A stretch of DNA of 64,000 bases, from assembly GCA_947493005.1 (NCBI GenBank), contig CANLOY010000002.1, forward strand, positions 461,810 to 525,809, in the 5' to 3' direction. The notes below the pieces were generated by a model that worked only from the letters and a program-made list of their open reading frames with translations, searched no databases and was not told the origin of the DNA. This DNA is from an uncultured Roseivirga sp. Lineage in GTDB: Bacteria > Bacteroidota > Bacteroidia > Cytophagales > Cyclobacteriaceae. The translations under genes and the position numbers were made by a program. This document shows, in pieces, positions 8,660 through 62,000 of this stretch (its first letter is position 1; each line of letters opens with the position of its first letter).

Positions 8660-10033
8660 ATGGCACAAAAACCTTCTTTACCTAAAGGCACCAGAGACTT
8701 TGGCCCACTACAAATGTACCGAAGGGAATACATTCTAAATTCTATAAAAAGTGTATTCAAAAAGTATGGTTTCATGCCGTTAGAAACTCCAGCATTAGAA
8801 AACCTACACGTTCTAACAGGTAAGTATGGAGATGAAGGTGATCAATTATTGTTCAGAGTACTCAATTCTGGAGATTTCTTAAGTAAAGCATCAATCGGGG
8901 ATTTTGAACAAGGTTCAAAGGTACTTTCTTCCAAAATAAGTGAGAAAGGATTAAAGTACGATTTAACGGTACCTTTCGCGAGATACGTAGTTATGAATCG
9001 TAACGATATCGCCTTTCCATTCAAAAGATATCAAATCCAACCCGTTTGGAGAGCAGACAGGCCCCAGAAAGGGCGTTACAGGGAGTTTTATCAATGCGAT
9101 GCTGATGTTGTCGGAACGGATTCCTTGATTTGCGAAGCCGAACTTCTCGCAATTGTCGAGGAAGTGTTTAACAAACTCCAGTTTACAGATTACAAAGTCT
9201 CTTTAAGTAGTAGAAAAATACTCGAAGGAATAGCATCAATCTGCGGTGCTTCAGATAGCTTTTCTACTTTTTGTACCATTCTGGATAAACTAGACAAAAT
9301 AGGACTTGATAAAGTAAATGAAGAGCTAAGAAACACTGGATTAAAAGATAAAGACTTAAGTACTCTCAATGAAATTATTGATCTTGAAGGAGATAATTCT
9401 GAAATACTCAATCGCCTCACCTCTTATTTCAAAAGTTCACCTGTTGGTCTTCAAGGAATAAATGAGATCAAAGAAACCTTTACTCATTTATCTGATCTTG
9501 GAATTGGACAAGACAATATCCAAGTAGATTTTACTTTAGCGCGAGGCCTCTCCTATTATACTGGAATCATTTACGAAGTAAAGCCAACGTCTATAAAAAT
9601 GGGCACAATAACAGCAGGTGGCCGTTACGATAACCTAACAGGTGTATTTGGTTTAAATGATGTTTCTGGCGTGGGAATTTCTTTTGGTGTCGACAGAATT
9701 TACGACACGCTTGAAGAACTTAATTTATTTCCTGACCATAGTACCCAAACAACTCAAATATTACTGACGAATTTTGATTCTGATGCAGAAAAGCATGCAC
9801 TAAAAATTCTGGGATTTTTAAGAAAATCAGGAATTGCCAGCGAGATTTATCCAAAGGCTCACAAGTTGAAAAAACAAATGGGGTATGCAGACAAAAAGCA
9901 AATACCTTATGTTTTAATGATTGGTTCGAGAGAAATTGAAACGGGGATTTATACACTCAAAAATATGGCATCGGGCGACCATGAAGAAGTGAATACCGAC
10001 CAATTGATAGAAAAGCTATCTGCCACAGATTAG
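8660..10033 (+). CDS. hisS: Histidine--tRNA ligase
   Basis: PKGTRDF, YDLTVPFARY, WRADRPQKGRYREFYQCD, ARGLSYYTG, GGRYD. Confidence 0.98.
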   Translation: MAQKPSLPKGTRDFGPLQMYRREYILNSIKSVFKKYGFMPLETPALENLHVLTGKYGDEGDQLLFRVLNSGDFLSKASIGDFEQGSKVLSSKISEKGLKYDLTVPFARYVVMNRNDIAFPFKRYQIQPVWRADRPQKGRYREFYQCDADVVGTDSLICEAELLAIVEEVFNKLQFTDYKVSLSSRKILEGIASICGASDSFSTFCTILDKLDKIGLDKVNEELRNTGLKDKDLSTLNEIIDLEGDNSEILNRLTSYFKSSPVGLQGINEIKETFTHLSDLGIGQDNIQVDFTLARGLSYYTGIIYEVKPTSIKMGTITAGGRYDNLTGVFGLNDVSGVGISFGVDRIYDTLEELNLFPDHSTQTTQILLTNFDSDAEKHALKILGFLRKSGIASEIYPKAHKLKKQMGYADKKQIPYVLMIGSREIETGIYTLKNMASGDHEEVNTDQLIEKLSATD

Positions 10034-47555: not shown

Positions 47556-49457
47556 ATGAACATTAGACGAGTAGTATTGCAGCTTTCATTACTCCTTTCT
47601 GTTTCAGCCGTTTTGATGGCTCAGGGCAGAGCAACAAAAAAAGATAATGAACGATGGCAACAGCGCGTAAATTATTATATGGAAGTCGATATGGATGTAA
47701 ATACCAATCGATTCCAGGGTTTCCAAAAATTGGATTACACTAACAACTCGCCTGACGAATTGAATCAGGTGTTTTATCACCTCTATTTCAACGCATTCCA
47801 GCCAGGAAGCATGATGGACGTTCGTTCAAGAACCATTGCTGACCCTGATAGAAGAGTAAGAGATAGAATATCAAAATTAAAAGATGATGAAATAGGCTAT
47901 CAAAAGATATTCTCTCTGAAACAAGATGGTAAAGATGTTGAATATGAAGTAGTGGGTACCGTTTTAGAGGTTAAGCTCAACGAGCCAATTAAGCCGGGTG
48001 GTACGACTACTTTTGAAATGACATTCGAAGGGCAAGTACCCCTTCAAATAAGGAGGTCTGGTAGAGATAATGCGGAAGGTGTTCGCTATTCTATGTCTCA
48101 ATGGTTCCCCAAACTAGCCGAGTATGATTACCAAGGCTGGCATGCCGATGAATACATTGGTCGTGAATTTTACGGAGTTTGGGGAGATTTTGAACTTAAG
48201 CTTACGATAGATAAAGATTATGTAGTTGGAGGAACAGGTTATTTACAGAACCCTCAGGAAATTGGTCATGGTTATGAAAATGAAGGCCAAGCGGTTAACC
48301 AAAAAGTAAGAAACGGTAAACTGACCTGGCACTTTTTAGCTCCCGATGTCCATGATTTTATGTGGGCTGCAGATCCAGACTACGTCCACGATAAGTTAAC
48401 CATGAAAAATGGAACAGTACTTCACTTCTTACACCAAAAAGGCCAGAATGAAGAAAACTGGAAAAAACTCATCCCACTTACAGAAATGTCTTTTGAGTAT
48501 GCCAATGAGCACTTTGGACAGTATCCTTATAATCAGTTCTCTGTAATCCAGGGAGGTGATGGTGGCATGGAGTACCCAATGTCAACATTGATCACTGGTC
48601 AAAGAGGTAGTCTCTTAGGAGTTACCATACACGAGTCTATGCACGATTGGTACCATGGAGTGCTAGGCAGCAATGAAGCATTACACCCTTGGATGGATGA
48701 AGGCTTTACATCTTATGCTTCTGCCGAAATATCTAGACATATTGCCAGAACAGTACGAGGAGAAGATCCTCCTGCAGTAACTATAGAGAATATTGGTTCC
48801 AGAGCTGGTCAGGGTGGATACCTGAACTCAGCCAGAAGTGGTAGAGAAGAGGCTTTGAGCACACACTCTGATCACTATGATTACAATGGTATTTATGGTG
48901 CGGCTGCTTATGGGAAAGGAGCAGTTTGGATGAGTATGATGGGTTATGTTATAGGCGAAGAAGCCAGGAACAAAGGTTTGTTGGAATACTTTAACCAATG
49001 GAAGTTCAAGCACCCTAATCCTAATGATGTACTAAGGGTTTTTGAGGAAGTTTCAGGACTCGAACTGGATTGGTACAACGAATATTTTGTATACACCACC
49101 AAACAAATAGATTACGGTGTAAAAGAAGTAGTTGGTGAAGGCAATAAGACCAAAGTCACACTGGAGAAGGTTAAGAAAATGCCAATGCCAATTGACGTTG
49201 TGGTTACTTATAAGGATGGTACCAAAGAAGTACACTATATGGCGCTTAGAATGATGAGAGGTCAAAAGAAGGCTGAAACAAATGACAAGCGAATTGTTCA
49301 TGAAGATTGGCCTTGGACTAACCCAACTTATGAGCTTTCCATAGACAGACCTATATCAGAAATTGTATCTGTAGAAATAGACCCTTCTGGTAGAATGGCA
49401 GACATCAATAAGGACAACAACAAATGGGAAGCCGATAAGATTGGCAACAAGAAATAA
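47556..49457 (+). CDS. M1 family aminopeptidase
   Basis: GGMEYP, HESMHDW...DEGF, AYGKG. Confidence 0.92.
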   Translation: MNIRRVVLQLSLLLSVSAVLMAQGRATKKDNERWQQRVNYYMEVDMDVNTNRFQGFQKLDYTNNSPDELNQVFYHLYFNAFQPGSMMDVRSRTIADPDRRVRDRISKLKDDEIGYQKIFSLKQDGKDVEYEVVGTVLEVKLNEPIKPGGTTTFEMTFEGQVPLQIRRSGRDNAEGVRYSMSQWFPKLAEYDYQGWHADEYIGREFYGVWGDFELKLTIDKDYVVGGTGYLQNPQEIGHGYENEGQAVNQKVRNGKLTWHFLAPDVHDFMWAADPDYVHDKLTMKNGTVLHFLHQKGQNEENWKKLIPLTEMSFEYANEHFGQYPYNQFSVIQGGDGGMEYPMSTLITGQRGSLLGVTIHESMHDWYHGVLGSNEALHPWMDEGFTSYASAEISRHIARTVRGEDPPAVTIENIGSRAGQGGYLNSARSGREEALSTHSDHYDYNGIYGAAAYGKGAVWMSMMGYVIGEEARNKGLLEYFNQWKFKHPNPNDVLRVFEEVSGLELDWYNEYFVYTTKQIDYGVKEVVGEGNKTKVTLEKVKKMPMPIDVVVTYKDGTKEVHYMALRMMRGQKKAETNDKRIVHEDWPWTNPTYELSIDRPISEIVSVEIDPSGRMADINKDNNKWEADKIGNKK

Positions 49458-49477
49458 ATAATTTAAATCATTGAAAG

Positions 49478-49506
49478 AGCCCGACAGAAGACTGTTGGGC
49501 TTTTTT
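49478..49506 (+). terminator. Intrinsic terminator after the M1 peptidase (convergent with marR)
   Basis: AGCCCGACAG-aaga-CTGTTGGGCT followed by T-run. Confidence 0.85.
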
Positions 49507-50113
49507 ATGCCGCATTATACTCTTCGCAATCAACTCTTATTTCGTCAGTATTCAGTTTCTTTTTAAGGAACGAACAACCGTGTCTTGAAACTTTGTCCCC
49601 CTCATAGAAACTACATCCAAAACACATTCTTTGAACTGGTATAAGTCCTAATTCGTTCATCTGATCCAATAGTCCATAAAGTCCCTCAAAAAGTTTCCCT
49701 TTCTTTGAACTCCCTAACTGACTTAACGCACTTTCAAGGTTATCTGTAAATCCCTCAGCTTCTTCTGTGATTTTTTCAGCCAGTGAGGTTAGTTTTAAAT
49801 AAAAGCTCCTTTTATCCTCTTCAACCGTCACTTTTTCAAGCAGTTGCTTTTTGAGTAAAACCCTGACAGAATCACTAATTGTTGCTTTTGTCATTTGGAA
49901 CTCTTTTGCCAAGTGACTCACTTTATTCCACCTTAAGTTGTGGTACTTTATAAAAAGCAATATCTGAACTTGTATTGGACTAATACCTAAAGGCTGAGCT
50001 TTGCTCCAAAGTGACTGACGAAAGAAGTCAGACAGTTTAGATATCAGCATTGTTACCTTGTAATCAGTATTGTTATGCTGATTCTTTAAGTCAAAGGGTG
50101 ATTTCCTATCCAT
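49505..50113 (-). CDS. MarR family regulator with C-terminal Cys4 domain
   Basis: ISPIQVQILLF, TKATISDSVRVL, EDKRS; C-terminal CFGC-x12-C-x15-C. Confidence 0.88.
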   Translation of the reverse strand: MDRKSPFDLKNQHNNTDYKVTMLISKLSDFFRQSLWSKAQPLGISPIQVQILLFIKYHNLRWNKVSHLAKEFQMTKATISDSVRVLLKKQLLEKVTVEEDKRSFYLKLTSLAEKITEEAEGFTDNLESALSQLGSSKKGKLFEGLYGLLDQMNELGLIPVQRMCFGCSFYEGDKVSRHGCSFLKKKLNTDEIRVDCEEYNAA

Positions 50114-50715
50114 TTATCAATAATATGCTCTGCTTCACTTTCTGGTTTATGCCCAAACCAAGTATCTAAGATATCATATTCTTTATTGAAGATCACAAAT
50201 GTTGGTGTACCTCTGAACTGATTCAGGTGAAAAGTCAAAGCGATATGCTCAAAGTTCTTATAATACACCCTCACTCTGTCCTGAAGAAGTTCCTTATCAT
50301 AAGAAGACCAATAATCATAATTGGGATTAGTTTTACAAACTTCCTCAATCACATCCTCCACTAGGAAAGCTTCCGGTTTCACAAGACGATCCATTAATAC
50401 CGTGTAAGTCACGGGCAAATTGGACTTATCAATTCCATAGGCGATATCTGCTTTCTCCACCTCTCCAACCAATTGGTTTTCTTCGATAAGTTGTTTCGTA
50501 TTACCTACAGAGTTCAATGCAAAGTCTTCAAAGGCGGTTGACATAGCTGTAAAACTCAAATTCTCACTGTACTTTCTTCTCAGCTGCTCAATCAATGGAA
50601 ATCCGTGGGTAAAACACCCTGGGCAATTTACCTGAAACAAGTAGAGTAAGTTGACCTCTTTTATTTCAAACTCCTTATTCCAGTATTGATCAAATTCTAG
50701 TCTCAGTTTCCTCAT
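50086..50715 (-). CDS. Thioredoxin-fold (TlpA/peroxiredoxin-like) protein with CPGC motif (track start 50724)
   Basis: FQVNCPGC, STAFEDF, RGTPT cis-Pro loop; no signal peptide. Confidence 0.75.
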   Translation of the reverse strand: MRKLRLEFDQYWNKEFEIKEVNLLYLFQVNCPGCFTHGFPLIEQLRRKYSENLSFTAMSTAFEDFALNSVGNTKQLIEENQLVGEVEKADIAYGIDKSNLPVTYTVLMDRLVKPEAFLVEDVIEEVCKTNPNYDYWSSYDKELLQDRVRVYYKNFEHIALTFHLNQFRGTPTFVIFNKEYDILDTWFGHKPESEAEHIIDKWIGNHPLT

Positions 50716-50717
50716 CA

Positions 50718-50969
50718 CTAACAATCACAAGTAAAATCATCCATATGCTCATATCCTGGTAAGAAATCACCATCAATACTTGCAATCAAAGATGTATCAA
50801 TAATATCTCCATTGACAGTTTCTATTATATTTCCAGCTACCTTCTTTATCACAGTATGCACAGTATGAAATTCACGGATTCCATTAAAATATTGAATCTG
50901 AACATACAAACGTTTTAGCCTTAGCTCTTCAACTTGTTTCAATACACTACTCTGCATAGCACTAAACAA
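50718..50969 (-). CDS. Small hypothetical protein ending in FTCDC
   Basis: 83-aa ORF coupled to both neighbours. Confidence 0.7.
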   Translation of the reverse strand: MFSAMQSSVLKQVEELRLKRLYVQIQYFNGIREFHTVHTVIKKVAGNIIETVNGDIIDTSLIASIDGDFLPGYEHMDDFTCDC

Positions 50970-50976
50970 TTATTGA

Positions 50977-51234
50977 CTAACAACCCTGCATTTCTAAAAT
51001 GTAATACCCTTTATTAAGAATAGAATCCTCAATCTCAGGTGTAGCCATTTCAATATGGCAAAACTTACACTCTTTCGCACTTAATGCCTGGCCTGCTTGC
51101 CCTTTCGACTCCAGATATTCTTTTCCAAAGACAACCACTTTTTCAAAGTCTTCCCCATCTTTTGTAATGATGTCGAAGTGCATTACACTGCCGTCTCGTT
51201 TAGTTACATAAGTATCAAAAACTGCTGCTTTCAT
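50977..51234 (-). CDS. DUF2024 family protein
   Basis: VFDTYVTKRDG.VMHFDI, GKEYL, ECKFCH. Confidence 0.9.
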   Translation of the reverse strand: MKAAVFDTYVTKRDGSVMHFDIITKDGEDFEKVVVFGKEYLESKGQAGQALSAKECKFCHIEMATPEIEDSILNKGYYILEMQGC

Positions 51235-52001
51235 TATTTACTACTTTTAGTTATTTCAAATTTCCTTTTCCCGGAGTAAGTCCTTTCTCCTTCTATTCTT
51301 TCTCCCTTTGTATTAATCAGTTCAAGGGATATTGTATGCTCTCCTTCATCAAGCCCATAAATGAAGTATGGTTTCCATTCGGGTAAAACAAATTCATTAT
51401 CATCTATAATTGCTTTAACCCTACTTCCTCTACCTAAGTCCACATTTGCTAAATAAAAATCAAGAAGTATAGGAGTGTTTTCTACATCGTCTACAACATA
51501 TTTACCTTTAGGTCTGCTAAAGAAAATACCGGGTTCCGAAATGGTGCTACTCAAAGCCTCTCCGCTCTCACCAACCACCACTTCTCTTAATTCAAATGCC
51601 TCAGGGTTCTTAATACTCTCATGAAATGACCTTGATAAAAACGCCAGAATTGTATGCTTACCCGGTTCAAGTTCAAGAGCGAACTCCTTGTCATATTTAG
51701 CCATGTAAGGCCTCTCGTCCACTATTAAATGTATATGTTGCCCCTTCTGAGAATTGGCCAGTATTTTGGCTCTTTCTCCAGGTGTTCTTATACCAAGCTG
51801 ATAGTCTTCAACTCTAAACCTCAGCTGAATCTGCTCAAAAACCAGCGAATCATCGGGAGTCAATAACTCAAGTTTTCCATGAGCAGGTTCCGCCCTCTCC
51901 TGTGCAACAACACTTATTTCTGAAGTACTTTTAATATGCTGACAGCTTGAAAGAATCAAGACTGTCAGCATTAAAAGCATTGAACTTTTTAAATTTATCA
52001 T
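51234..52001 (-). CDS. His-motif lipoprotein with two Ig-like modules (DUF4399/DUF6130-like)
   Basis: Lipobox LSSC; GQHIHLIVD and GKHTILAFLSRSFHES; second module with GEHTISLEL. Confidence 0.65.
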   Translation of the reverse strand: MINLKSSMLLMLTVLILSSCQHIKSTSEISVVAQERAEPAHGKLELLTPDDSLVFEQIQLRFRVEDYQLGIRTPGERAKILANSQKGQHIHLIVDERPYMAKYDKEFALELEPGKHTILAFLSRSFHESIKNPEAFELREVVVGESGEALSSTISEPGIFFSRPKGKYVVDDVENTPILLDFYLANVDLGRGSRVKAIIDDNEFVLPEWKPYFIYGLDEGEHTISLELINTKGERIEGERTYSGKRKFEITKSSK

Positions 52002-52007
52002 CAGAAA

Positions 52008-52751
52008 TTATTTCGATACCTTATAAGGCAAGGAAAGATTTCCAGAAGCAACTGAATAAACACTGTAAACTCCAAGGAGTGGCCTATCAGAATCAGAAGT
52101 ATTCACCTGCATATATGCGGCCACTCCATCAAAACTAAATTCTGTCTTATTACTTATTCTATAAAGAGGCACAACCACTTTCATGGTTTTCCCTTTGGTA
52201 ATTACAGGGAAGCCAGGGGAATCCATGTACATAGGCATACCTGGGTTTGTTGGAGGTAATTTTACACTCTTATCATCAGCCTTGAATTGTTTTACAGATA
52301 GGCCACCTGCAACTCGCTTGTCTTCGGTTAACACAACCCAGTGAGAGTGCCATACTACTCCATCATTATCAAGAATTGTATCAAAGTTCTCGTCCCATAA
52401 AGGGGTATCATCAAAATCCGGGTGAGAAGTTAATGCCAAAGCCAGAATACCTTCGGTAGCATTAAAGCCAACATCTTCTGGCTTTAAAGACGTTGGGAAA
52501 ACATAGCCTAAAACCGGAGCACCGTCTAGCTGACCATATGCTTTTGGTATAGATTTGCCGGCCTCTCCTTCAACTTTCACTTCAAATACCAGCTGCTGCA
52601 ACTCATTATTGAGTTTTGCAGTAACTCTTTTGATTTTTAAGTCAGGGGTAGATTTAAAGTTGGCATTGGAATGGAGCTCTACTTGAGCAAAAGAAAGATA
52701 TGGAACTAGAACTCCAATCATCAAAACGGTTAAAAATTTAGATTTCATCAT
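52008..52751 (-). CDS. Conserved secreted hypothetical protein (HPDFDDTP / WHSHW family)
   Basis: SPI signal; ALTSHPDFDDTPLWDEN and VWHSHWVVL motifs. Confidence 0.8.
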   Translation of the reverse strand: MMKSKFLTVLMIGVLVPYLSFAQVELHSNANFKSTPDLKIKRVTAKLNNELQQLVFEVKVEGEAGKSIPKAYGQLDGAPVLGYVFPTSLKPEDVGFNATEGILALALTSHPDFDDTPLWDENFDTILDNDGVVWHSHWVVLTEDKRVAGGLSVKQFKADDKSVKLPPTNPGMPMYMDSPGFPVITKGKTMKVVVPLYRISNKTEFSFDGVAAYMQVNTSDSDRPLLGVYSVYSVASGNLSLPYKVSK

Positions 52752-52759
52752 TTTTTAAA

Positions 52760-52820
52760 TTAGTTAGGATTACTTACTAAATAATAAACCAGAATTCAAG
52801 TAGTTTGGTTCACTAACTAA
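52760..52820. promoter_or_regulatory. Two 21-bp operator-like dyads upstream of the minus-strand operon
   Basis: TTAGTTAGGATTACTTACTAA (52760-52780) and GTAGTTTGGTTCACTAACTAA (52800-52820). Confidence 0.65.
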
Positions 52821-52865
52821 ATTATTTTTTTCTAATATCTATTCTCAGCTAAGAAACTATAGACT

Positions 52866-52881
52866 GATTGTGATTACAATC
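52866..52881. promoter_or_regulatory. Dyad GATTGTGATTACAATC upstream of the doxX-like gene
   Basis: TGT-N4-ACA core shared with the sites at 53335 and 54449. Confidence 0.4.
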
Positions 52882-52914
52882 TTTTAATCAGAAGTGGTTT
52901 TGTTAAATTGAAAT

Positions 52915-53265
52915 ATGGACAATACCTCACTCTACATAATGTCCCTAATGTATATTCTTGCAGGCCTACTCCACTTTTGGAAACCAAAAGCTTATATTAA
53001 AATCATACCCGACTATCTCCCCTATCATTTAGCATTAGTCTATCTGAGTGGGGCGTTTGAAATCTTATTTGCGCTGTTACTTCTTTTTCCAAAAACTCAA
53101 AGCGTTGGTGCATGGGGTATTATTCTAACCTTAATTGGGGTCTTTCCAGCCAATATTTATATGCTCACTTCAAATAAAAAGAAAAAAGCATGGTACATAG
53201 TTATTCTTTGGATCAGACTCCCTATTCAAGCTTTGCTTATCTATTGGGCTTGGCAATTCATCTAA
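52915..53265 (+). CDS. DoxX/MauE-like membrane protein
   Basis: YILAGLLHF, IPDYLP, LSGAFEI, VFPANIYM, RLPIQ. Confidence 0.88.
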   Translation: MDNTSLYIMSLMYILAGLLHFWKPKAYIKIIPDYLPYHLALVYLSGAFEILFALLLLFPKTQSVGAWGIILTLIGVFPANIYMLTSNKKKKAWYIVILWIRLPIQALLIYWAWQFI

Positions 53266-53320
53266 AAACATAAACACCTCTTTCACAGATACTTGTAAAA
53301 AATTTAAAAAAATAATTTCA

Positions 53321-53346
53321 ATGTTTGAACTTTGATGTTTAAACAT
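53321..53346. promoter_or_regulatory. Tandem operator-like sites upstream of the ahpD-like gene
   Basis: ATGTTTGAACTT (53321) and perfect palindrome ATGTTTAAACAT (53335-53346). Confidence 0.55.
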
Positions 53347-53395
53347 TGGTTTTGTATCTGAATTTTAAAACAGAAGAATTAAAACATATATAATT

Positions 53396-53947
53396 ATGAG
53401 AAATTTTGAAGTACCAACAAGAGATCAGGTATCACCAGAAGCACAGGAAATATTTGACAACCTTAAGAGCAAAATCGGAATGATCCCAAATATTTATGCT
53501 ACGATCGGTAACTCTGCAAATGCACTCGGTTCATATTTAACATTTCAGGGAGCTCAAGCTCAAGGCACATATAATGCTAAAGAAAGAGAAGCAGTAGCGC
53601 TAGCAGTTGCTCAAGCCAATGGTTGTTCTTATTGCCAGGCGGCACATACTGCACTTGGTAAAATGAATGGATTCACTGAAGAAGAAACTCTGGATTTAAG
53701 AGCAGGAAACAGTGCCGACAGCAGGTTAAATGCGCTAGTAACTCTTGCCAGAGATATAACCTTAAATAATGGAAGGCCTACATCAGAAAATGTAGAAAAC
53801 TTCTTTGCTCAAGGTTTTGACAATGCTGCACTTGTCGATCTTGTCTTACTAGTTGCGGACAATACCATTACAAACTATGTAAACAATATTACTGGTATTG
53901 CTATAGATTTCCCTGCTGCCAAATCATTGGAACCAGTAGCAGTTTAA
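53396..53947 (+). CDS. AhpD/carboxymuconolactone decarboxylase family protein
   Basis: GMIPNIY, KEREAVALAVAQANGCSYCQAAH. Confidence 0.92.
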   Translation: MRNFEVPTRDQVSPEAQEIFDNLKSKIGMIPNIYATIGNSANALGSYLTFQGAQAQGTYNAKEREAVALAVAQANGCSYCQAAHTALGKMNGFTEEETLDLRAGNSADSRLNALVTLARDITLNNGRPTSENVENFFAQGFDNAALVDLVLLVADNTITNYVNNITGIAIDFPAAKSLEPVAV

Positions 53948-53983
53948 ACCCATAAGAGAACACTAATCAGAATAACAATAAAA

Positions 53984-54355
53984 ATGAAAAAATCATTAAT
54001 GATTGTAGCTATGCTAATCGGATTTGCAGCTACAGGCTTAGCACAAAAGCAAAACGCAAAAGTTATTAAACTTGATCAAACTCCAGGTGAATTTGCCATT
54101 TCAGGGTTAACCCTTAAGCCAGGTAAGTACATTTTCGAAGTTGAAAACAGTGGCGTAGATCATGAAGTTGGCTTTGTGTTAGTACCAGTAAAAAATGGTA
54201 AAGAGGGAGAGCATATAAAAGCTGGTTATTTATCAAAAGCCATTAAAAACGGAGAAAAAGGACGTTCTAAAGTTGTTGAACTGAAAGCAGGAACCTACAA
54301 CTACTTCTGCCCTTTGAACCCAACACCTCATTATCAGATTGTAGTGAAAGAGTAA
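53984..54355 (+). CDS. Secreted cupredoxin-domain protein
   Basis: SPI signal; DHEVGF and LKAGTYNYFCPLNPTPHY. Confidence 0.8.
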   Translation: MKKSLMIVAMLIGFAATGLAQKQNAKVIKLDQTPGEFAISGLTLKPGKYIFEVENSGVDHEVGFVLVPVKNGKEGEHIKAGYLSKAIKNGEKGRSKVVELKAGTYNYFCPLNPTPHYQIVVKE

Positions 54356-54388
54356 ATAAGTAGATTGGTTTATAGCGTTGAGAGAAGT

Positions 54389-54422
54389 GCCATCCACTAA
54401 ATACTGTGGGTGGCCTTTTTTG
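54389..54422 (+). terminator. Intrinsic terminator after the cupredoxin gene
   Basis: GCCATCCAC-loop-GTGGGTGGC followed by T-run. Confidence 0.8.
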
Positions 54423-54448
54423 TTAATGAAACTTGTAAATATGCTTTG

Positions 54449-54460
54449 GTGTTATAACAT
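54449..54460. promoter_or_regulatory. Dyad GTGTTATAACAT upstream of the second marR
   Basis: Same TGTT-WW-AACA core as 53335-53346. Confidence 0.55.
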
Positions 54461-54484
54461 TGTATTTAAAATATTGTAAGCGAG

Positions 54485-54937
54485 ATGACTTTAGAAGAGC
54501 AATTGATCAACTCAGAAACTTTTACAGGTGAGCATCACAAAGCGAGAGTTAACATTTTGTATAGCGGCTATTGGCTTGGGCAACGTATTGCTGAGATCTT
54601 AAAGCCCTATGATATCTCTCTCCAACAATTAGATATTCTCCGAATACTTGAAAGGCAGAATAAAGCCCCTTTGAGTACTCTGGAGATTAGAGAGCAAATG
54701 ATTATTGGAAATGCCGATGCATCGAGACTAGTAGATAAGCTTTGCGCAAAGCAATTGATATGGAAAAAGCCTTGCCCGCATGATGGCCGTAAAGTTCAGG
54801 TTTTTATTGATCAAAAAGGAATAGCACTCTTAACTGTGCTTGACAAAAAAATATCCGGGCTAAACGAAATCACTAATAATCTGAATCAAAAAGAGATTAA
54901 AGTACTTAATCAATTGTTGAATAAGCTAAGGGCTTAA
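54485..54937 (+). CDS. MarR family transcriptional regulator
   Basis: ISLQQLDILRIL, DASRLVDKL, CPHDGRKV. Confidence 0.92.
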   Translation: MTLEEQLINSETFTGEHHKARVNILYSGYWLGQRIAEILKPYDISLQQLDILRILERQNKAPLSTLEIREQMIIGNADASRLVDKLCAKQLIWKKPCPHDGRKVQVFIDQKGIALLTVLDKKISGLNEITNNLNQKEIKVLNQLLNKLRA

Positions 54938-54946
54938 AAAAACACA

Positions 54947-55063
54947 TTGAGGTATAAACCATATATCAAACTAACCATACTCCTTTGTAATATGATGACT
55001 GTAATGGCTGGAGTTACAGTTGCCCCTTCCATTCCAGAAATGATAAAGGTAATTTCTATCTAA
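54947..55063 (+). pseudogene. Truncated 5' remnant of an MFS transporter gene
   Basis: TTG...TAA encodes LRYKPYIKLTILLCNMMTVMAGVTVAPSIPEMIKVISI*, matching the recalled MFS TM1 pattern KLTLLL...TVMAGATIAPSLP. It stops inside the 3' end of the convergent gene. Confidence 0.7.
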
Positions 55064-55508
55064 AAACATACCTGAGGTTTATCCCAAACCCTTTGAACGT
55101 GAAATCTGTATTGTCAATTACTCTAAAGCCTGGTCGCCAATCGATACCTAGGGCAAAAGGCACTTCCTTGAAGTGATACTCTACTCCAACCTCTCCAACA
55201 GCTCCGAACTGAAAATCGTCTCCCAAAGACACGAAAGGTCCTGCTCCTAGATACCAGTTAAGCGCTTCCTCACCTAGAGGTTCAAAGATAAAATCCCACA
55301 AAGCATCTAAACCTAGTTGATTGTCTCCAAAAGAAACGTTCGTATGTAAACGGTCAAATTGTCCAAAAGCAAATACAGCATCAAAAGCGACATTACTGGC
55401 CGTTACATTGCCAAACCTCACTCCTATTTCCTGTCCTTTCACTTGATTAAAAATCACACATGAAAACACCAAACAAACGCATAAAAACAATCTCCTCATA
55501 AACTTCAT
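55056..55508 (-). CDS. Small outer membrane beta-barrel protein (track start 55532)
   Basis: Signal peptide; QEIGVRFG, WYLGAGP, GVEYHF, DWRP; ends LRYVFR. Confidence 0.8.
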   Translation of the reverse strand: MKFMRRLFLCVCLVFSCVIFNQVKGQEIGVRFGNVTASNVAFDAVFAFGQFDRLHTNVSFGDNQLGLDALWDFIFEPLGEEALNWYLGAGPFVSLGDDFQFGAVGEVGVEYHFKEVPFALGIDWRPGFRVIDNTDFTFKGFGINLRYVFR

Positions 55509-55562
55509 TTTAAGCTTATGAGGAGAACGCAAACTTTTAAGGTTTTATGATAACCTACAGCA

Positions 55563-56006
55563 CTATTTGTTCACAGTAATTGTATAGTTACCTGCTATAC
55601 CACTTTCAAGGTTTGCAACAGGGCCATTGAAGCTAAAGCTGAATACAAATGATGTCTCTGTTAAGGTTACAATAGTCACCTCTTTTCCATCCTGAAGGCT
55701 AATGCGTTTCGCTTCTTCATCTACCCATTCCCACGTACCTGTTGCACTGAACAAATTACCTGCATTTGTAGTAGTATATCCCCCATCGGTGATGGACAAG
55801 GCAAAATCTGCATAATTCAAACTTACGTCCTGGCCATCAACCATAATACTCCCCTGACTGAGACCCCAGCTGCCTGCAAGCTTCTCAAAAGCCAGTGCCT
55901 GTGCTGAAGGGCTATCTTCACCTCCATTTTTACAACCAACAAACAAGATTGCCAGGGTAAAAAACATAAGTAGTACTTGAATATATCTCTTAGTTCCAGG
56001 TTCCAT
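55563..56006 (-). CDS. Lipocalin-like lipoprotein
   Basis: Lipobox FVGC; LAGSW motif; GTWEW; starts 11 nt after the adhesin stop. Confidence 0.7.
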   Translation of the reverse strand: MEPGTKRYIQVLLMFFTLAILFVGCKNGGEDSPSAQALAFEKLAGSWGLSQGSIMVDGQDVSLNYADFALSITDGGYTTTNAGNLFSATGTWEWVDEEAKRISLQDGKEVTIVTLTETSFVFSFSFNGPVANLESGIAGNYTITVNK

Positions 56007-56017
56007 TTTCTTAACTT

Positions 56018-59000
56018 TTACTGTCTGATCATAACCTTCTTTTGTATTACCTGATTTTCGGTTCTAAGGAGAATCAGATAAACACCACTGGTATAATTGG
56101 ATACGTCTATTTCTAAAGTATTTTCTTTGAATTTGTTTCTTGAATAATGCTGAAGTCCCTGTAAATCCATCAAGCTGATATCCAAGGGTTTTCCTGAAAA
56201 AGCAGATAAATCTATCGTCAACTTATTGGTTGTTGGGTTAGGATATAAATTAACCTTGGATTCGTCTATCGCTTCATCTTCAACTGCAGTGACTATTGCT
56301 CCATTGGCAGAAACAGCTAATGTACCTGTTCCCCCATTACTATTGATCACAATGTTTCCACTGTAGACAACAGCCGCAGTTGGGCTAAAAGTAATGGTCA
56401 CTACCTGATTGTTACCTGAAGTAATTGTAAGTGGTCCTGCAGATCCACCATAAGCAGTTGGGTAGGTAATGCTGCTTACTGTCAGGTCTGCATCACCATC
56501 ATTGTGAATCGTAATATTAAAGTTTGAGGTCAAGCCCAACGCGGTAGCGGGGATGTTTAAGTCACCTGTAATTCGCATGTCAGGCTCAGCTACATCTATA
56601 ATTGAGATTATAAATGACTTTTCAAACGTACCTCCATTTCCATCATTCGTTCTTAGTCTGATACTGTAACTCGATTTTGCCTCAAAATCAAACACAACTG
56701 CAGCTTTCAATTGACTACCTGTGATAGTAAACGAAGCATTATCCGCATCCCCAGTACCCGATACTAAACTATAGATATGTGTATCCCCTGTGTTGGCATC
56801 TACTGTAGATAACGTACCAGCAACATCTCCAATTGAATTGTTTTCAGTAAAAGAACTATTTGCAGTTATGTTAATATCTGTCGGTGCATTATTGAAACTC
56901 ACATCTACGTATCCACTCGTATTTCCATTACCTGCTTGATCGGTCGCTCTATCTGCTGAAACTGAAACTGAAACTGTGCCAGATGCCGTAGGAGTAATTG
57001 TTGCAGTATAAACACTGCTACTCACTGTGGTAAATCCTCCTAGTGTCCCATTGGTAACACTGATATCTGTACCAACAAAATTTGTTACAGCCTCACTAAA
57101 AGTGAAAGTTGCTATAAATGCTCCGGTCACTGAAGTTGTTGGAGTAGTAATTGTCAGGCTAGGAGCAGTAGCATCATATGTTGTACTTAACTGGCTTGAA
57201 GAAATGTTTGGATTACCAACATTGTCCATCGCTATACCAGGTGGAACATCAACAGTTACTACGCCATTTGCTATCGGAGTGACCTTTAAAGTCCATACTC
57301 GTCCAGCAAGTGTTTGTGTAAAGTCAGAAGCTAATCCATTGCTTAGTACAATATCAGTTAAAACAAATCCACTGACTTCTTCATTATAATCAACAGTAAC
57401 AGTAAAGGCTCCATTGGTAAGCGCACCTACATTATTAGTAAGGGTAACACGTGGCAACTGCCAATCATGCTTAATAGCACGAGTCGCATGCACTCCTAAA
57501 TTACCTGCGATATCCTGTACACTGGCAGTAATTACCTCATTCGGATTAATCCCTTGCTGAGCTGCTGAGGAGAGAGTCACACTCCAAGTATTTGAATTAA
57601 CTGTCGCTGTATATGTAATACCATTAACAACTACATCTACTCGCCCTCCATCTTCTACTCCTAAGGTAGTTCCAGATATAATTGTATTTGTATCATCCTC
57701 AACAGCATTTATCACATCATCTCCAGCTACTGTATTAATAGTAATCGAAGTTGGGAGAACTGTGTCTATTGTAACTCCAAACACCGTGCTCAAACCACTC
57801 ACATTACCTGCTCTATCTGTTGTCTTTGCCGTAATCAAATATGAACCATTTGCTAAAGTAGTCCCGGTATGATCGTACGTCCATACCCCAGAATCATTTG
57901 CCATAGTACTTCCTATACTAGTACCGTCAATAAAGATCTCTACAGTCGAATTGGCCTCTGCAGTACCTGAAAAAACCAGCGTCCTATCTTTGGTTATACC
58001 ATCAGTCAAGCTCAAACCTGTATCATCGCTGATTGATAATACAATCGGTGATAATACAGAGTTATCCACTATCACTGACAACGAAGTACTTAAAGCACTG
58101 ACATTGCCTACTGCATCTGTAGCTTTTGCCGTAATTGAATAAGTAGCATCAGTAAGTGCAGTTCCACTATGATCAAAACTAAAGGCACCCGTTACATCAA
58201 CAGTTGTAGTTCCTATACTAGCTCCATTAATAAAGACTTCTACAGATGAACCTATCTCTCCAGTCCCTCTAAATATCAAAGTATTGTCCATCGTATTCTC
58301 ATCGCTAGCACTTACCCCGCTATCATCACTGATTGATGATAAAATAGGAACTGTTGGGGGAGCGGTGTCAATAGTAAAGTTTGGGGAGTCTTTTATGCCT
58401 ACTCCTGCATTGCCCGCTACATCCGTAACCCCTGTATTATCTACTGTAATCACATTAGTAGCATCTTCAATACCAGCTGTAGGCGTAAAAGTTGCTGTAT
58501 AAGTCTTGCCACCATCTGCTGAACTTACCGCTGTCATTGTACCATTAGGTATTGTCAAGTCAGTATTATCAAAACCAGTCACTACTTCTGAAAAAGTAAT
58601 TGTAACGAGACTCGTCTCTCCTGCGGTAAGAGCATTATCCGCTAAAACAATTGTTACTGTAGGCCTTTTAGTATCTATTGTAAAATTACCTGAATCGGTA
58701 GTACCTGCTCCTGCATTGCCACCTGTATTAGCAACACCTGTGTTATCTACTGTAATCACATTGGTAGCATCTTCAATATCAGTCGTTGGCGTAAAGGTTG
58801 CAGTATAGGTCTTACCACCATCTGATGAGTTTACCGCTGTCATTGTTCCATTAGGTATTGTCAAGTCAGTATTATCAAAACCAGTCACTACTTCTGAAAA
58901 AGTAATTGTCACCAGACTTGTCTCTCCTGCTTTTAAGGCATTATCAGCAAGAACCACAGTAACTGTTGGCACTTTCGTATTGATTGTGAAATTCCCTGAA

Positions 59001-62000
59001 TCCGTTGTTCCTGTCCCTGAATTACCCGCTACATCCGTAACTCCTGTATTATCCATGGTAATCACATTAGTAGCATCTTCAATACCAGCTGTAGGCGTAA
59101 AAGTTGCTGCATAAGTCTTGCCTCCATCTGCTGAGCTTACCGCTGTCATCGTACCATTAGGTATTGTCAAGTCAGTATTATCAAAACCAGTCACTACCTC
59201 TGAAAAAGTAATTGTAACAAGACTCGTCTCTCCTGCTACAAGGGCATTATCTGCTAAAACAATTGTTACTGTAGGTCTTTTAGTATCTATTGTAAAATTA
59301 CCTGAATCGGTAGTGCCCGCTCCTGCATTGCCGCCTCCATTAGCTACTCCTGCCTTATCTACAGTGATCACATTGGTAGCATCTTCCACATCGGCTATCG
59401 GGGTAAAGGTTGCAGTGTAAGTCTTACCCCCATCGGCTGAACTTACTGTAGTCATTGTACCATTAGGAATTGTCAAATCAGTGTTGTCAAACCCAGTCAC
59501 TATTTCTGAAAAAGTAATCGTCACCAGACTAGTCTCCCCTATGTTTAAAGCATTATCGGCCAGCACCACCGTAACTGTTGGTTGTTTGGTATTGATCGTG
59601 AAGTTAGACGAGTCGGTTGTACCTGTGCCTGTATTACCTGCTACATCAGTTACTCTGGTATTGTCTACCGTAATCACATTGGTGGCATCTTCCAAATCAG
59701 CTGCCGGGGTATAGGTTGCAGTATAGGTCTTGCCACCATCTGATGAGCTTACTGCTGTCATCGTGCCATTTGGAATAGTCAAATCTGTATTGTCGAACCC
59801 TGTCACTATCTCCGAAAAGGTAATTGTCACTAAACTGGTCTCCCCGGCCTTCAAAGCATTGTTGGCCATCACTACCGTAACTGTAGGTGTGATTCCATCA
59901 ATCACCAGGGCTTTATTGGCTCCTAGCGAGTTAGTCGCTCCAGGACTGGCCAAGTTCAGTATAGCGTCCAATCCATTGTTCTTGATCGTCCCTCCGTTTA
60001 ATGTCAATGAGGTAGTCGCCTTGTAGTCCAAATCCAAACTCTCATCTCCTGCCTGAACGGTATAATTGAAAGTCAAAGTATTTGTAGTCGTTCCTGATAC
60101 ATAATCAATCGTTCGGTCTGTTGCGCCTGTTTCCAGTGTCAGCTGGGGAGTACCTGTCACTATTACAGGTAAATTAAAGGTAACAGTGACTGCTATTACA
60201 TCGCCTACCTTGTAACTACCATCTGCCGTTGTCGAACTCACAGAGGTAACCACTGCCGCATCATCATCATTGATCGTTATCGTCTGTTGCTGAACTCCGT
60301 TCTCTGTTGCCTTACTAACACCAGTGATATCAATAATAATCGTCTCATCTCCCTCTGCATCTGTGTCCTGGGTCGCTGTAATACCTACTGTTGCATTTGC
60401 TGACAATTGCCCTGCCATTATTGTGATATTGGTGCTTGCCGTACTATTATAATCCGTACCATTGGTAGTCGTTCCTGAATAAGCTAAAGTAACTGTTACA
60501 TCCTGAGAGGATGTCTGTGATAGTGTCGCGGTTACTGTTGATGTCCCTGAGGCTTCTGCTATACTCGAATTGCCTACGCTTAAACTAACCGTTGGAAAAG
60601 CAGATATCACTATTGCTTTATTAGCTCCCAAAGAATTAGCAGCTCCTGGACTAGCCAAGGTCAAGGTAGCATCATTGCCAGCTCCATCTTTTATCGCTCC
60701 TCCATTTAAACTTAGTGAGTTGGTAGCCTTATAATCCAAATCTGTACTCTCATCTCCTGATTGAGTTGTATATGCAAAACTCAGTGTATTGGTACCACTA
60801 CCTGAAGCATAATTAATAGTTCTGTCAACAGCTCCGGTTTCCAGTGCCAGTTGTGGAGTCCCTGTTACAGTTACTGACTCACTGAAAGTTACCGTTATAG
60901 TAATTAACTCTCCTATTCCATAGGTACCATCTGCTTTAGTACTACTCACACTTGTTACTGTTGGGGCTACACCATCAATCACTAGAGCTTTGTTCGCTCC
61001 CAGTGAGTTCGCGGCTCCGGGACTGGCCAGGGTCAAAGTGGCATCGTTGCCTGCTCCATCTTTTATCGTGCCTGAGTTCAAGGCCAGTGCAGATGTAGTA
61101 GTGTAGTCCAGATCAGCACTAACATCACCTGATTGTATTGTGTAGTTAAAAGTAAGGGTGGTGCCTCCACTACCAGAAGTATAATTCACAGTACGGTCTG
61201 TAGTACCTGTCTCTAAGGTTATTTGTGGAGTACCTGTTACTGTAACGGCTTCACTAAAAGTCACGGTTACTGAAACAATATCGCCCACTTTATAAGTGCC
61301 ATTGGCTGTTGAACTACTCACTCCTGTGACTGTTGGTACTACCCCATCGATAACCAAAGCTTTATTAGCTCCCAATGAGTTGGTTGCCCCGGAACTGGCC
61401 AATGTCAAAGTAGCATCGTTGCCGGCTGCGTCCTTAATCGTGCCTGAGTTCAATGCCAGTGCTGTTGTGGATGTATAATCCAAATCTGAGCTGACATCAC
61501 CTGATTGTACGGTGTAGTTAAAAGTCAAGGTTGTGCTACCACTGCCTGAACTGTAATTCACAGTGCGATCTGTAATACCTGTCTCTAATGTTATTTGTGG
61601 TGTTCCTGTCACTGTAACTGCTTCGCTAAAAGTTACCGTTACCGCTATTACATCGCCCACTTTATAGGTGCCATCTGTTGTAGTACTACTTACACTCGTC
61701 ACCGTTGGACCTGTGGTATCAATCACCAAAGCTTTATTAGCACCTAGTGAGTTCGCTGCCCCGGGACTGGCCAAGGTCAGTATAGCGTCCAATCCATTGT
61801 TCTTGATCGTCCCTCCGTTTAATGTCAATGAGGTAGTGGCCTTGTAGTCCAAATCCAAACTCTCATCTCCTGCCTGAACTGTATAGTTGAAAGTCAAAGT
61901 ATTTGTAGTCGTCCCTGACGTGTAATTAATCGTTCGATCTGTTGTGCCAGTCTCTAATGTAAGCTGAGGTGTTCCAGTAACTATTACAGGTAAATTAAAA

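Follow-up and report, generated by a model that had tools for sequence, protein, structure and literature searches.

A widespread predicted MarR-family regulon, probably stress-related, and an apparently separate CMD–cupredoxin cassette lie back to back in an uncultured Roseivirga

Regulons that respond to nitric oxide (NO) are controlled by NsrR, an Rrf2-family protein with a [4Fe-4S] cluster that acts on hmp and ytfE/RIC, by the Crp/Fnr-family protein NssR, which acts on the globins Cgb and Ctb in Campylobacter, and by HcpR in Bacteroidetes. Redox-sensing MarR repressors such as OhrR, MexR and Escherichia coli MarR have a winged-helix fold, and SufR-type regulators place a Cys4 [4Fe-4S] site with 13–15-residue spacers C-terminal to a winged helix. 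Here we analyse a locus that recalls each of these in part. It occupies positions 49505–55063 of a 64-kb stretch of DNA (the window) from an uncultured Roseivirga sp. (assembly GCA_947493005.1, contig CANLOY010000002.1), and comprises two divergent arms that an initial annotation had read as one redox/copper "island". We conclude that the island is two independent gene modules placed back to back, which adjoin only in this Roseivirga-like lineage. Module 1 (49505–52821, minus strand) is a tightly packed operon of six genes, encoding HPD, a lipoprotein, DUF2024, a CDC protein, TrxCPGC and MarRC4, and appears from comparison of related loci to be a locally elaborated copy of a widespread, predicted autoregulated regulon whose canonical form is sTrx–HPD–DUF2024–MarRC4. 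Its role is probably defence against NO or oxidant stress. Module 2 (52915–55063, plus strand) looks like a separate MarR-controlled CMD(AhpD)–cupredoxin cassette for detoxification and efflux, of an ordinary type, whose pump gene has decayed.

The first gene of the minus-strand operon in the window encodes HPD (52008–52751), which has a signal peptide and the motifs TSHPDFDDTP and WHSHW. It is followed by a lipoprotein gene (51234–52001; lipobox LSSC, motifs GQHIH and SRSFHES), the DUF2024 gene (50977–51234; motif ECKFCH), an open reading frame (ORF) for an 83-residue protein ending in CDC (50718–50969), the gene for TrxCPGC (50086–50724), a thioredoxin-like protein of 212 residues with the motif FQVNCPGCF, and finally marRC4 (49505–50113), whose 202-residue product is a MarR protein with four C-terminal cysteines. 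The gaps between these genes range from −28 to +7 nt, so the six form one operon. All ten ORFs of the initial annotation were recovered with the motifs it had listed, and the thiol/redox flavour that it saw in the gene set held up. Its description of the minus arm as an undescribed system built from uncharacterised families also stood: HPD, the CDC protein and TrxCPGC had no Pfam or NCBIfam match, and in the literature searched no paper described a MarRC4 operon or tied DUF2024 to a dedicated regulator and operator.

We compared gene neighbourhoods around two anchors. For the first, an HPD alignment was scanned against one genome per GTDB species, which returned at least 589 loci carrying HPD, and the best 80 were taken with 10-kb flanks; for the second, 80 metagenome loci were taken from at least 562 stretches carrying the regulator. 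By these numbers the regulon is widespread. Homologues of the window's proteins near the anchors were counted by tblastn (160 loci in both sets together). Around HPD, MarRC4 was present in 72 of the 80 loci and DUF2024 in 56, with TrxCPGC in 8, the lipoprotein in 3 and the CDC protein in 1. Around MarRC4, DUF2024 was again present in 56 of 80, followed by sTrx (50), HPD (30), TrxCPGC (4) and the lipoprotein (2). sTrx is a 77-residue cytoplasmic thioredoxin-like protein with an invariant FYHAGCPVC, found by unbiased clustering of neighbouring ORFs. Its gene lies just upstream of HPD in 60 of the 80 HPD-anchored loci, where sTrx–HPD–DUF2024–MarRC4 is the modal architecture, and is missing from the window. 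Operons of the MarRC4 type occur in Bacteroidota, Balneolaceae and Calditrichia; Ancylomarina (Marinilabiliales) has one of the sTrx–HPD–DUF2024–MarRC4 type, and a Balneolaceae locus has the operon without HPD. Coral metatranscriptome contigs from three runs, 90–99% identical and at low depth, cover sTrx, HPD, DUF2024 and marRC4 of a Tenacibaculum-type operon (L016, 9300–12000), so that the operon is probably expressed in nature.

Thus the core of the minus arm recurs together in other genomes, whereas the island as a whole does not. The initial annotation had taken the two arms together as a single redox/copper detoxification relay that reaches from the cytoplasm through the membrane to the periplasm. 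In the window the arms do stand side by side and diverge, with a Cys or His motif in almost all of their products; in Roseivirga E12 (locus L001) these genes are likewise close to one another, and a distant genome (L039) has a CMD–cupredoxin pair convergent to marRC4. However, among the 80 HPD-anchored loci AhpD and the cupredoxin each occurred in only 2 (Roseivirga E12 and one unrelated metagenome-assembled genome, MAG), MarR2 in 1 and the DoxX-like protein in 4, adjacent in E12 only. Among the 80 MarRC4-anchored loci AhpD occurred once, and the cupredoxin, MarR2 and the DoxX-like protein not at all. Plus-arm genes are therefore missing from 78–79 of the HPD loci and 79–80 of the MarRC4 loci, and over the 160 only the nearest relatives have them next to the minus arm. 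In Roseivirga misakiensis the flanks match those of the window and the plus arm is complete, in the order M1-peptidase, IorA, IorB, MauE/DoxX, CMD, cupredoxin, MarR, MFS (major facilitator superfamily transporter), and there is no minus arm. In E12 a 2.6-kb pair of IorA/IorB oxidoreductase genes sits between the two arms, and in L039, L166 and L168 the CMD–cupredoxin pair is served by AraC-type regulators in place of MarR. The arms also differ in regulator and operator. Together, the co-occurrence counts, the R. misakiensis locus, the intervening IorAB pair and the AraC-served pairs indicate that the arms are independent. The neighbourhood analysis has already largely refuted a single relay, which we now regard as extremely improbable.

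The same comparison accounts for how the arms came to touch. The IorA (2Fe-2S)/IorB (molybdopterin) pair precedes the DoxX/MauE-like gene in L001 (7204–9847) and L167 (3251–5879), with the DoxX/MauE-like gene directly after IorB in both, and is absent from the corresponding part of the window (52752–52914). Loss of some 2.6 kb with IorAB brought the arms head to head in the window, and the DoxX/MauE-like gene (52915–53265, plus strand) is an orphan of the lost unit. Its membrane protein product scored 28.4 bits against MauE (cut-off 27) and fell below the cut-offs of DoxX_2 (21.7 v 26.3) and DoxX (15 v 23.6). Just upstream of this gene is an imperfect palindrome at 52868–52893 (TTGTGATTACAA / TTTTAATCAGAA), which fits neither MarR operator and may be a remnant operator of the lost IorAB unit.

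We derived a predicted MarRC4 operator, the 19-bp palindrome TAGTTAGGAWTCCTAACTA, from upstream regions. The upstream regions of 60 loci share TAGTTAGGAWTCCTTACTATATTTG, the right arm of which runs into TAnnTTTG, which we take to be the Bacteroidetes −7 promoter element; as predicted, then, the operator TAGTTAGGAWTCCTAACTA overlaps the −7 box. With up to two mismatches allowed, the 80 genome loci contained 176 sites and the 80 metagenome loci 125 (301 in all), and shuffles of the 80 genome loci contained none. Using a position weight matrix (PWM) built from the 301 sites, we asked which genes have a site within 170 nt upstream. The operator precedes 85–90% of sTrx genes and 85–87% of HPD genes, 35–66% of marRC4 genes and 13–39% of DUF2024 genes, compared with 1–4% of all other genes apart from the haem-protein and HPP genes described below. 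These per-gene rates suggest that genes of the regulon often have operator-promoters of their own. In the window the strong site, O1 (TTAGTTAGGATTACTTACTAA, 52760–52780), lies 9 nt upstream of the HPD start codon and is the sole match of such strength in the 64 kb (26.8 bits). A degenerate second copy (TAGTTTGGTTCACTAACTA, 52803–52821), 43 nt further upstream, keeps its half-sites and is conserved in Roseivirga E12; it has four mismatches to the consensus and falls below the PWM threshold. The minus-arm dyad belongs to this regulon-wide motif. The initial annotation had assigned each arm its own repeated operator dyad, and both proved real, as one strong and one degenerate site in the minus arm and as copies of TGTTnnAACATTG in the plus arm. 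The only other match in the window, a weak one at 8989–9005 considered as a further site of the regulon, has three mismatches and lies inside the histidyl-tRNA synthetase gene (hisS); we treat it as a chance match.

MarRC4 matches Pfam MarR_2 (43.2 bits v a cut-off of 27, E = 4.4e-11), and its AlphaFold2 (AF2) model shows a MarR fold with a small C-terminal beta module. The best Foldseek matches were MepR, ST1710, MexR and MarR, with a probability of 1.00 to MepR, MexR and MarR, and the MarR structures align over only about 127–144 columns of the 202 residues. The last ~45 residues are modelled as small beta hairpins carrying C164-x2-C167...H178-x-C180...C196. These five residues are invariant in 26 and in 72 homologues, there is no cysteine before residue 164 and hence none in the MarR core, and no Pfam model covers the module. 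MarRC4 therefore appears to carry an unrecognised Cys4/His module, putatively a sensor. It shares with OhrR, MexR and E. coli MarR the winged-helix fold, a palindromic operator that overlaps the promoter, a place inside its own operon and cysteines as likely sensors; a palindrome occurs in the promoter of the regulator's own operon both for MarRC4 (upstream of the operon and of marRC4) and for MarR2 (TGTTnnAACATTG, upstream of ahpD and marR2). Unlike in those repressors, all the cysteines and His178 lie in the additional C-terminal module, and the predicted targets are sTrx, HPD, DUF2024 and globins, not ohr or efflux genes. We considered an OhrR-type peroxide sensor, which is excluded by the Cys-free core, and found no Ohr/OsmC gene in the operon across the 160 loci. 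SufR is alike in architecture, with a DNA-binding winged helix-turn-helix (wHTH) followed by a C-terminal four-Cys motif. However, MarRC4 is unrelated to it in sequence, is spaced C-x2-C-x12-C-x15-C with a His at −2 of the third Cys, and controls no suf genes.

HPD has 6159 homologues at E ≤ 0.001, typically 60–70% identical across orders and all named "hypothetical", and no Pfam model. Its AF2 model is an all-beta sandwich (predicted local confidence score, pLDDT, 83.8). The sequence profile had no match in the PDB at E ≤ 10, and a Foldseek search with the model returned only generic Ig-like matches (best E = 0.024, template-modelling score ≤ 0.24) and no structural relative. An HMMER profile search of 1.84 billion representatives gave 333 matches, nearly all of them HPD family members or fragments; beyond tandem duplications and one tail of the type IX secretion system (T9SS), these offered no informative domain fusion. 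The tandem two-domain proteins are 400–556 residues long (among P0061, P0111 and P0241–P0245), for example in a Nannocystaceae MAG; the T9SS C-terminal sorting domain is on homologue P0247, which suggests that some lineages display the protein on their surface. Among family members as little as 28% identical, H110, P111 and W138 never vary, and F113, D114, D115, H135 and H137 hardly do. Such conservation points to a metal site of the His3/Asp kind and not of the Cu(I)–Met kind. A Cu(I) Met-motif had been a candidate, given the GMPMYMD stretch of HPD in Bacteroidota, and was given up, since conservation of its Met residues does not extend to the family at large.

DUF2024 is the most faithful partner of MarRC4, and its conserved residues (H18, C55, C58, H59 and C84) mark it as a small cytoplasmic Cys/His protein that putatively binds metal. 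The window protein is a full-length member of its family (PF09630, 114.8 bits v 27, E = 1.7e-33, residues 1–82 of 85). It matches PDB 2HFQ (NE1680 of Nitrosomonas europaea, E = 4e-21), a structural-genomics "hypothetical protein"; the family is also known as arCOG08720. In PMC6393860, the only paper to turn up on it in the literature searched, it is catalogued as a "metal-binding protein" that 29 of 30 Thaumarchaeota possess.

That catalogue entry is one reason to ask whether Module 1 serves homeostasis of Cu, Zn or another thiophilic metal, with MarRC4 sensing the metal at its Cys4/His site, DUF2024 acting as a cytoplasmic metallochaperone or buffer, and HPD and the lipoprotein as periplasmic binders. 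The conserved Cys3His2 of DUF2024, Cys4His of MarRC4 and His3/Asp of HPD would suit such a role, as would the Met stretch of HPD in Bacteroidota, and the best NCBIfam match of MarRC4 is the Zn sensor AdcR. However, that match (NF038251) reached 33.7 bits against a cut-off of 175 and covered residues 48–121 only, within the wHTH, so we rejected an AdcR/ZitR-type Zn sensor; the Met stretch of HPD is not kept in the family at large; no P-type ATPase, RND, CDF or TonB receptor gene was in or beside the operon in the 160 loci; and globins, thioredoxins and an HPP-family protein would be unexpected in a metal regulon. We consider metal homeostasis quite unlikely. The redox/copper label of the initial annotation stands in its redox part; for copper, the plus-arm cupredoxin is what is left once the Met-rich stretch is set aside.

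The only clues to function come from the genes that vary between operons, several of which point to NO or oxidant stress. A protoglobin gene with a signal peptide lies in the operon in 16 of 80 loci (PF11563, 1.7e-27), a group-III-like truncated haemoglobin gene in 13 of the 80 MarRC4-anchored loci and in the Balneolaceae operon, the haem protein HTHP in 5 of the 80 HPD-anchored loci (PF11534, 6.8e-30), and an HPP-family membrane protein in 3 loci (PF04982, 1.6e-60); GGACT and AAA proteins also occur in operons. The operator precedes 3 of 3 HPP genes, 56% of protoglobin genes and 44% of in-operon truncated haemoglobin genes, and because they stand directly behind it we predict that all three are members of the regulon. 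HPP-family proteins have been reported to transport nitrite (Maeda 2014, as cited in PMC7438415). In addition, genes for RIC/ScdA (repair of iron centres) and hemerythrin lie just upstream on the same strand in 6 loci. By inference, these members and neighbours suggest nitrosative or oxidative stress. HPD and the globins seldom share an operon: 2 operons had both, 19 HPD only, 17 a globin only and 17 neither (P = 0.003, Fisher test ignoring kinship between loci).

Two further gene arrangements near these operons deserve mention. In L119, L144, L148, L159 and L163 the genes upstream of sTrx on the same strand encode HTHP, truncated haemoglobin, a 147-residue membrane protein, tryptophan 2,3-dioxygenase, RIC/ScdA, hemerythrin and a 2Fe-2S ferredoxin; this block has no MarRC4 operator and has the look of a nitrosative-stress cluster in its own right, controlled by a different regulator. 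In five Flagellimonas/Allomuricauda loci (L021, L022, L053, L059 and L142) a Crp/Fnr-family regulator gene and then a truncated haemoglobin gene lie downstream of marRC4, again with no MarRC4 operator, a pairing that recalls Campylobacter NssR–Ctb.

The resemblance of Module 1 to the NsrR, NssR and HcpR regulons is one of gene content only. It has regulated or adjacent truncated haemoglobin, other globins, RIC/ScdA and hemerythrin, and a Cys-rich, putatively cluster-binding regulator predicted to repress at the promoter. However, MarRC4 belongs to the MarR family, not to Rrf2 or Crp/Fnr, RIC and hemerythrin lack its operator, and sTrx, HPD and DUF2024 are in no described NO regulon. By analogy, Module 1 would work like a redox- or NO-sensing repressor regulon of the OhrR/MarR, NsrR or NssR kind while being a member of no described one.

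We propose the following mechanism. A MarRC4 dimer would cover the −7 region of its promoters and so repress them. The Cys4/His centre of MarRC4, as a Zn-thiolate or an Fe-S cluster, would be modified by a reactive small molecule, upon which MarRC4 would leave the DNA and the promoters would be derepressed. The signal would most likely be NO or a nitrite-derived species, or else a thiol oxidant such as HOCl or H2O2; that Module 1 responds to NO or an oxidant we hold to be plausible, if a little short of probable. The thioredoxin-fold proteins may re-reduce or denitrosylate thiols and so reset the sensor, and DUF2024, with its Cys3His2, may be the metal or cluster partner of the regulator. In the periplasm the His3/Asp metal site of secreted HPD would bind or scavenge the same reactive species, and in operons without HPD globins would take over its job. 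A bolder version is unlikely, though worth stating: that MarRC4 with DUF2024 as its obligate partner is a new class of metal-thiolate or Fe-S sensor of gases or oxidants, and that HPD is a previously unrecognised periplasmic metalloprotein, its His3/Asp site set in a beta sandwich without a solved relative, that scavenges or senses NO or reactive nitrogen or oxygen species and so functionally replaces globins.

The haem proteins could also be read differently, as signs that Module 1 answers oxygen tension or haem status, with globins, HTHP and HPD handling O2 or haem and MarRC4 sensing through haem or an O2-labile Fe-S cluster. The operon does contain genes for protoglobin, truncated haemoglobin and HTHP, 4 loci have the haem enzyme tryptophan 2,3-dioxygenase close by, and the haem-sensing MarR proteins PefR and HsmR are among the fold matches of MarRC4. 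However, most operons, that of the window included, have no haem protein, there are no genes for haem uptake or synthesis nearby, and the thioredoxins and the adjacency of RIC fit damage repair better; we judge this reading decidedly unlikely. A third alternative takes the abundant cysteines and thioredoxin-fold members as the response to sulfide or sulfane sulfur: persulfidation would free MarRC4 from DNA, thioredoxins would reduce persulfides and globins would oxidise sulfide. Sensing of sulfane sulfur by MarR-family proteins is reported in PMC11211675, yet none of the 160 neighbourhoods contained genes for sulfide:quinone oxidoreductase (SQR), persulfide dioxygenase, rhodanese or a TauE/sulfite exporter, and we think sulfur sensing very improbable. 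The metal, O2/haem and sulfane-sulfur readings are all weaker because the transporter or sulfur-oxidation genes that they predict are absent from the 160 neighbourhoods.

Several points weigh against the NO/oxidant account itself. The assignment is guilt by association. A haem protein is found in a minority of loci (29 of 80 MarRC4-anchored and 10 of 80 HPD-anchored), and the window holds no sTrx, globin, RIC or HPP gene in its 64 kb. No MarRC4 operator lies upstream of the RIC and hemerythrin genes, which may thus be neighbours by chance. The statistics on HPD/globin exclusivity ignore phylogeny, and many of the metagenome contigs are cut short. For MarRC4, DUF2024 and HPD a bound metal or cluster is putative, the C-terminal module of MarRC4 is modelled at a pLDDT of only 59–75, and repression rather than activation is deduced solely from the position of the operator. 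Weighing all this, we consider the account as a whole, two modules with Module 1 as an NO/oxidant regulon of the proposed mechanism, to have slightly the better of the argument.

In Module 2, two tandem dyads of the TGTTnnAACATTG type (53319–53348) lie between the orphaned DoxX/MauE-like gene and ahpD, upstream of the latter. There were exactly two perfect matches to TGTTnnAACATTG in the 64 kb, at 53336, upstream of ahpD, and at 54450, upstream of marR2 (TGTTATAACATTG, 54450–54462), and two one-mismatch copies at 53319–53334. Both sets of dyads are conserved in Roseivirga E12, where the arms of the dyad are kept and the central bases differ. They are presumably bound by MarR2, a 150-residue protein (54485–54937, plus strand; Pfam MarR, 33.1 bits v 24.6, E = 5.1e-8). 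The AhpD-like protein (53396–53947, plus strand) belongs to the CMD family (52.5 bits v 23, E = 5.1e-14; TIGR00778, 44.2 v 27.8), has the CSYC...H motif as CSYCQAAH, and matches PDB 6E8L (E = 4e-14). No AhpC gene lies beside the CMD gene in the window or in L001, L039, L166, L167 or L168; since the partner is a cupredoxin and not AhpC, the protein is best called CMD-family, AhpD-like. The CMD–cupredoxin pair recurs in those five loci, and L165 has a family member without the CMD partner. In an Aquimarina copy the pair has an OsmC gene and another CMD gene next to it.

The cupredoxin is small and secreted (53984–54355, plus strand; Cupredoxin_1, 30.9 bits v 27, E = 2.8e-7; Copper-bind, 1.4e-5). 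It has H60, C109 and H116 in a C109-x6-H116 arrangement, but no Met follows H116 (HYQ) and H116 itself is replaced by Glu in the L039 homologue, so the copper site is only putative. Between the cupredoxin gene and marR2 lies an intrinsic terminator (54389–54414, plus strand; a 9-bp stem with 6 GC pairs, then a T-run). The initial annotation had called the last ORF (54947–55063, plus strand) an MFS remnant, correctly: its 38 codons match the start of the intact transporter of Roseivirga E12 (64% identity to residues 1–36 of 384, E = 1e-14), and an MFS gene follows marR2 in L001 and L167. Module 2 thus resembles the AhpD(CMD)/OsmC cassettes under AraC or MarR control and the MarR–MFS pairs in its CxxC...H CMD protein, its MarR with a dyad of its own and the MFS gene after marR2 in relatives. 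It differs from them in pairing the CMD protein with a secreted small cupredoxin instead of AhpC, and in the window the MFS gene is cut short.

The remaining genes of Module 1 are local additions. TrxCPGC is an optional insert in the operon: its N-terminal 50 residues match the thioredoxin-like structures 3EYT (E = 3e-6) and 3LOR (1.6e-3), with no Pfam model above threshold for it or for sTrx, its FQVNCPGCF motif, CPGC included, is invariant among homologues, and the gene is absent from Roseivirga E12. The CDC protein is a lineage-restricted accessory with homologues only in the close relatives L001, L085, L086 and L118, and aligns weakly and collinearly (E = 0.056) with another family of small proteins that have a C-terminal CxDC. 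We looked for a likeness to Rof and found no alignment to the Rof-like protein of L008, which alone touches Pfam ROF, below cut-off. The lipoprotein, also an optional accessory, scored 16.3 bits against DUF4399, below cut-off, and its gene follows HPD in 3 of 80 and 2 of 80 loci in the two sets. HPD and the His-rich lipoprotein were considered as distant paralogues and rejected (hhalign probability 1.3%).

Elsewhere, an Rfam scan of 49000–55600 found nothing at E ≤ 0.1. A sigma-70 promoter scan found 16 sites against 18 expected; the sigma-70 consensus is not informative for Bacteroidota. We found no sequencing runs for the window organism. At 56018–63973 (minus strand) there is an ORF of 2651 residues with many near-identical Ig-like repeats of ~90 residues and a T9SS-type C-terminus, probably a giant surface adhesin; its R. 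misakiensis counterpart has 2930 residues with Calx-beta, Big_13 and Por_Secre_tail domains.

For annotation, the locus shows that adjacency in a single genome should not be read as a system. The regulon of Module 1 includes three target families without an assigned function, HPD, DUF2024 and the 77-residue CPxC thioredoxin sTrx. Its operator is resolved to single bases, which makes electrophoretic mobility shift and reporter assays feasible straight away, and the tendency of HPD and globins to exclude each other suggests a function for HPD that can be tested. If true, the sensor/scavenger reading would give DUF2024 its first functional context, and as DUF2024 is also found in Nitrosomonas and is near-universal in ammonia-oxidising Thaumarchaeota, a function found for it would carry over to ammonia oxidisers. 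Marine Bacteroidota play a major part in degrading organic matter that is algal or associated with corals, and how they sense and survive nitrosative and oxidative stress is poorly mapped; the regulon described here may be one of the ways in which they do so.

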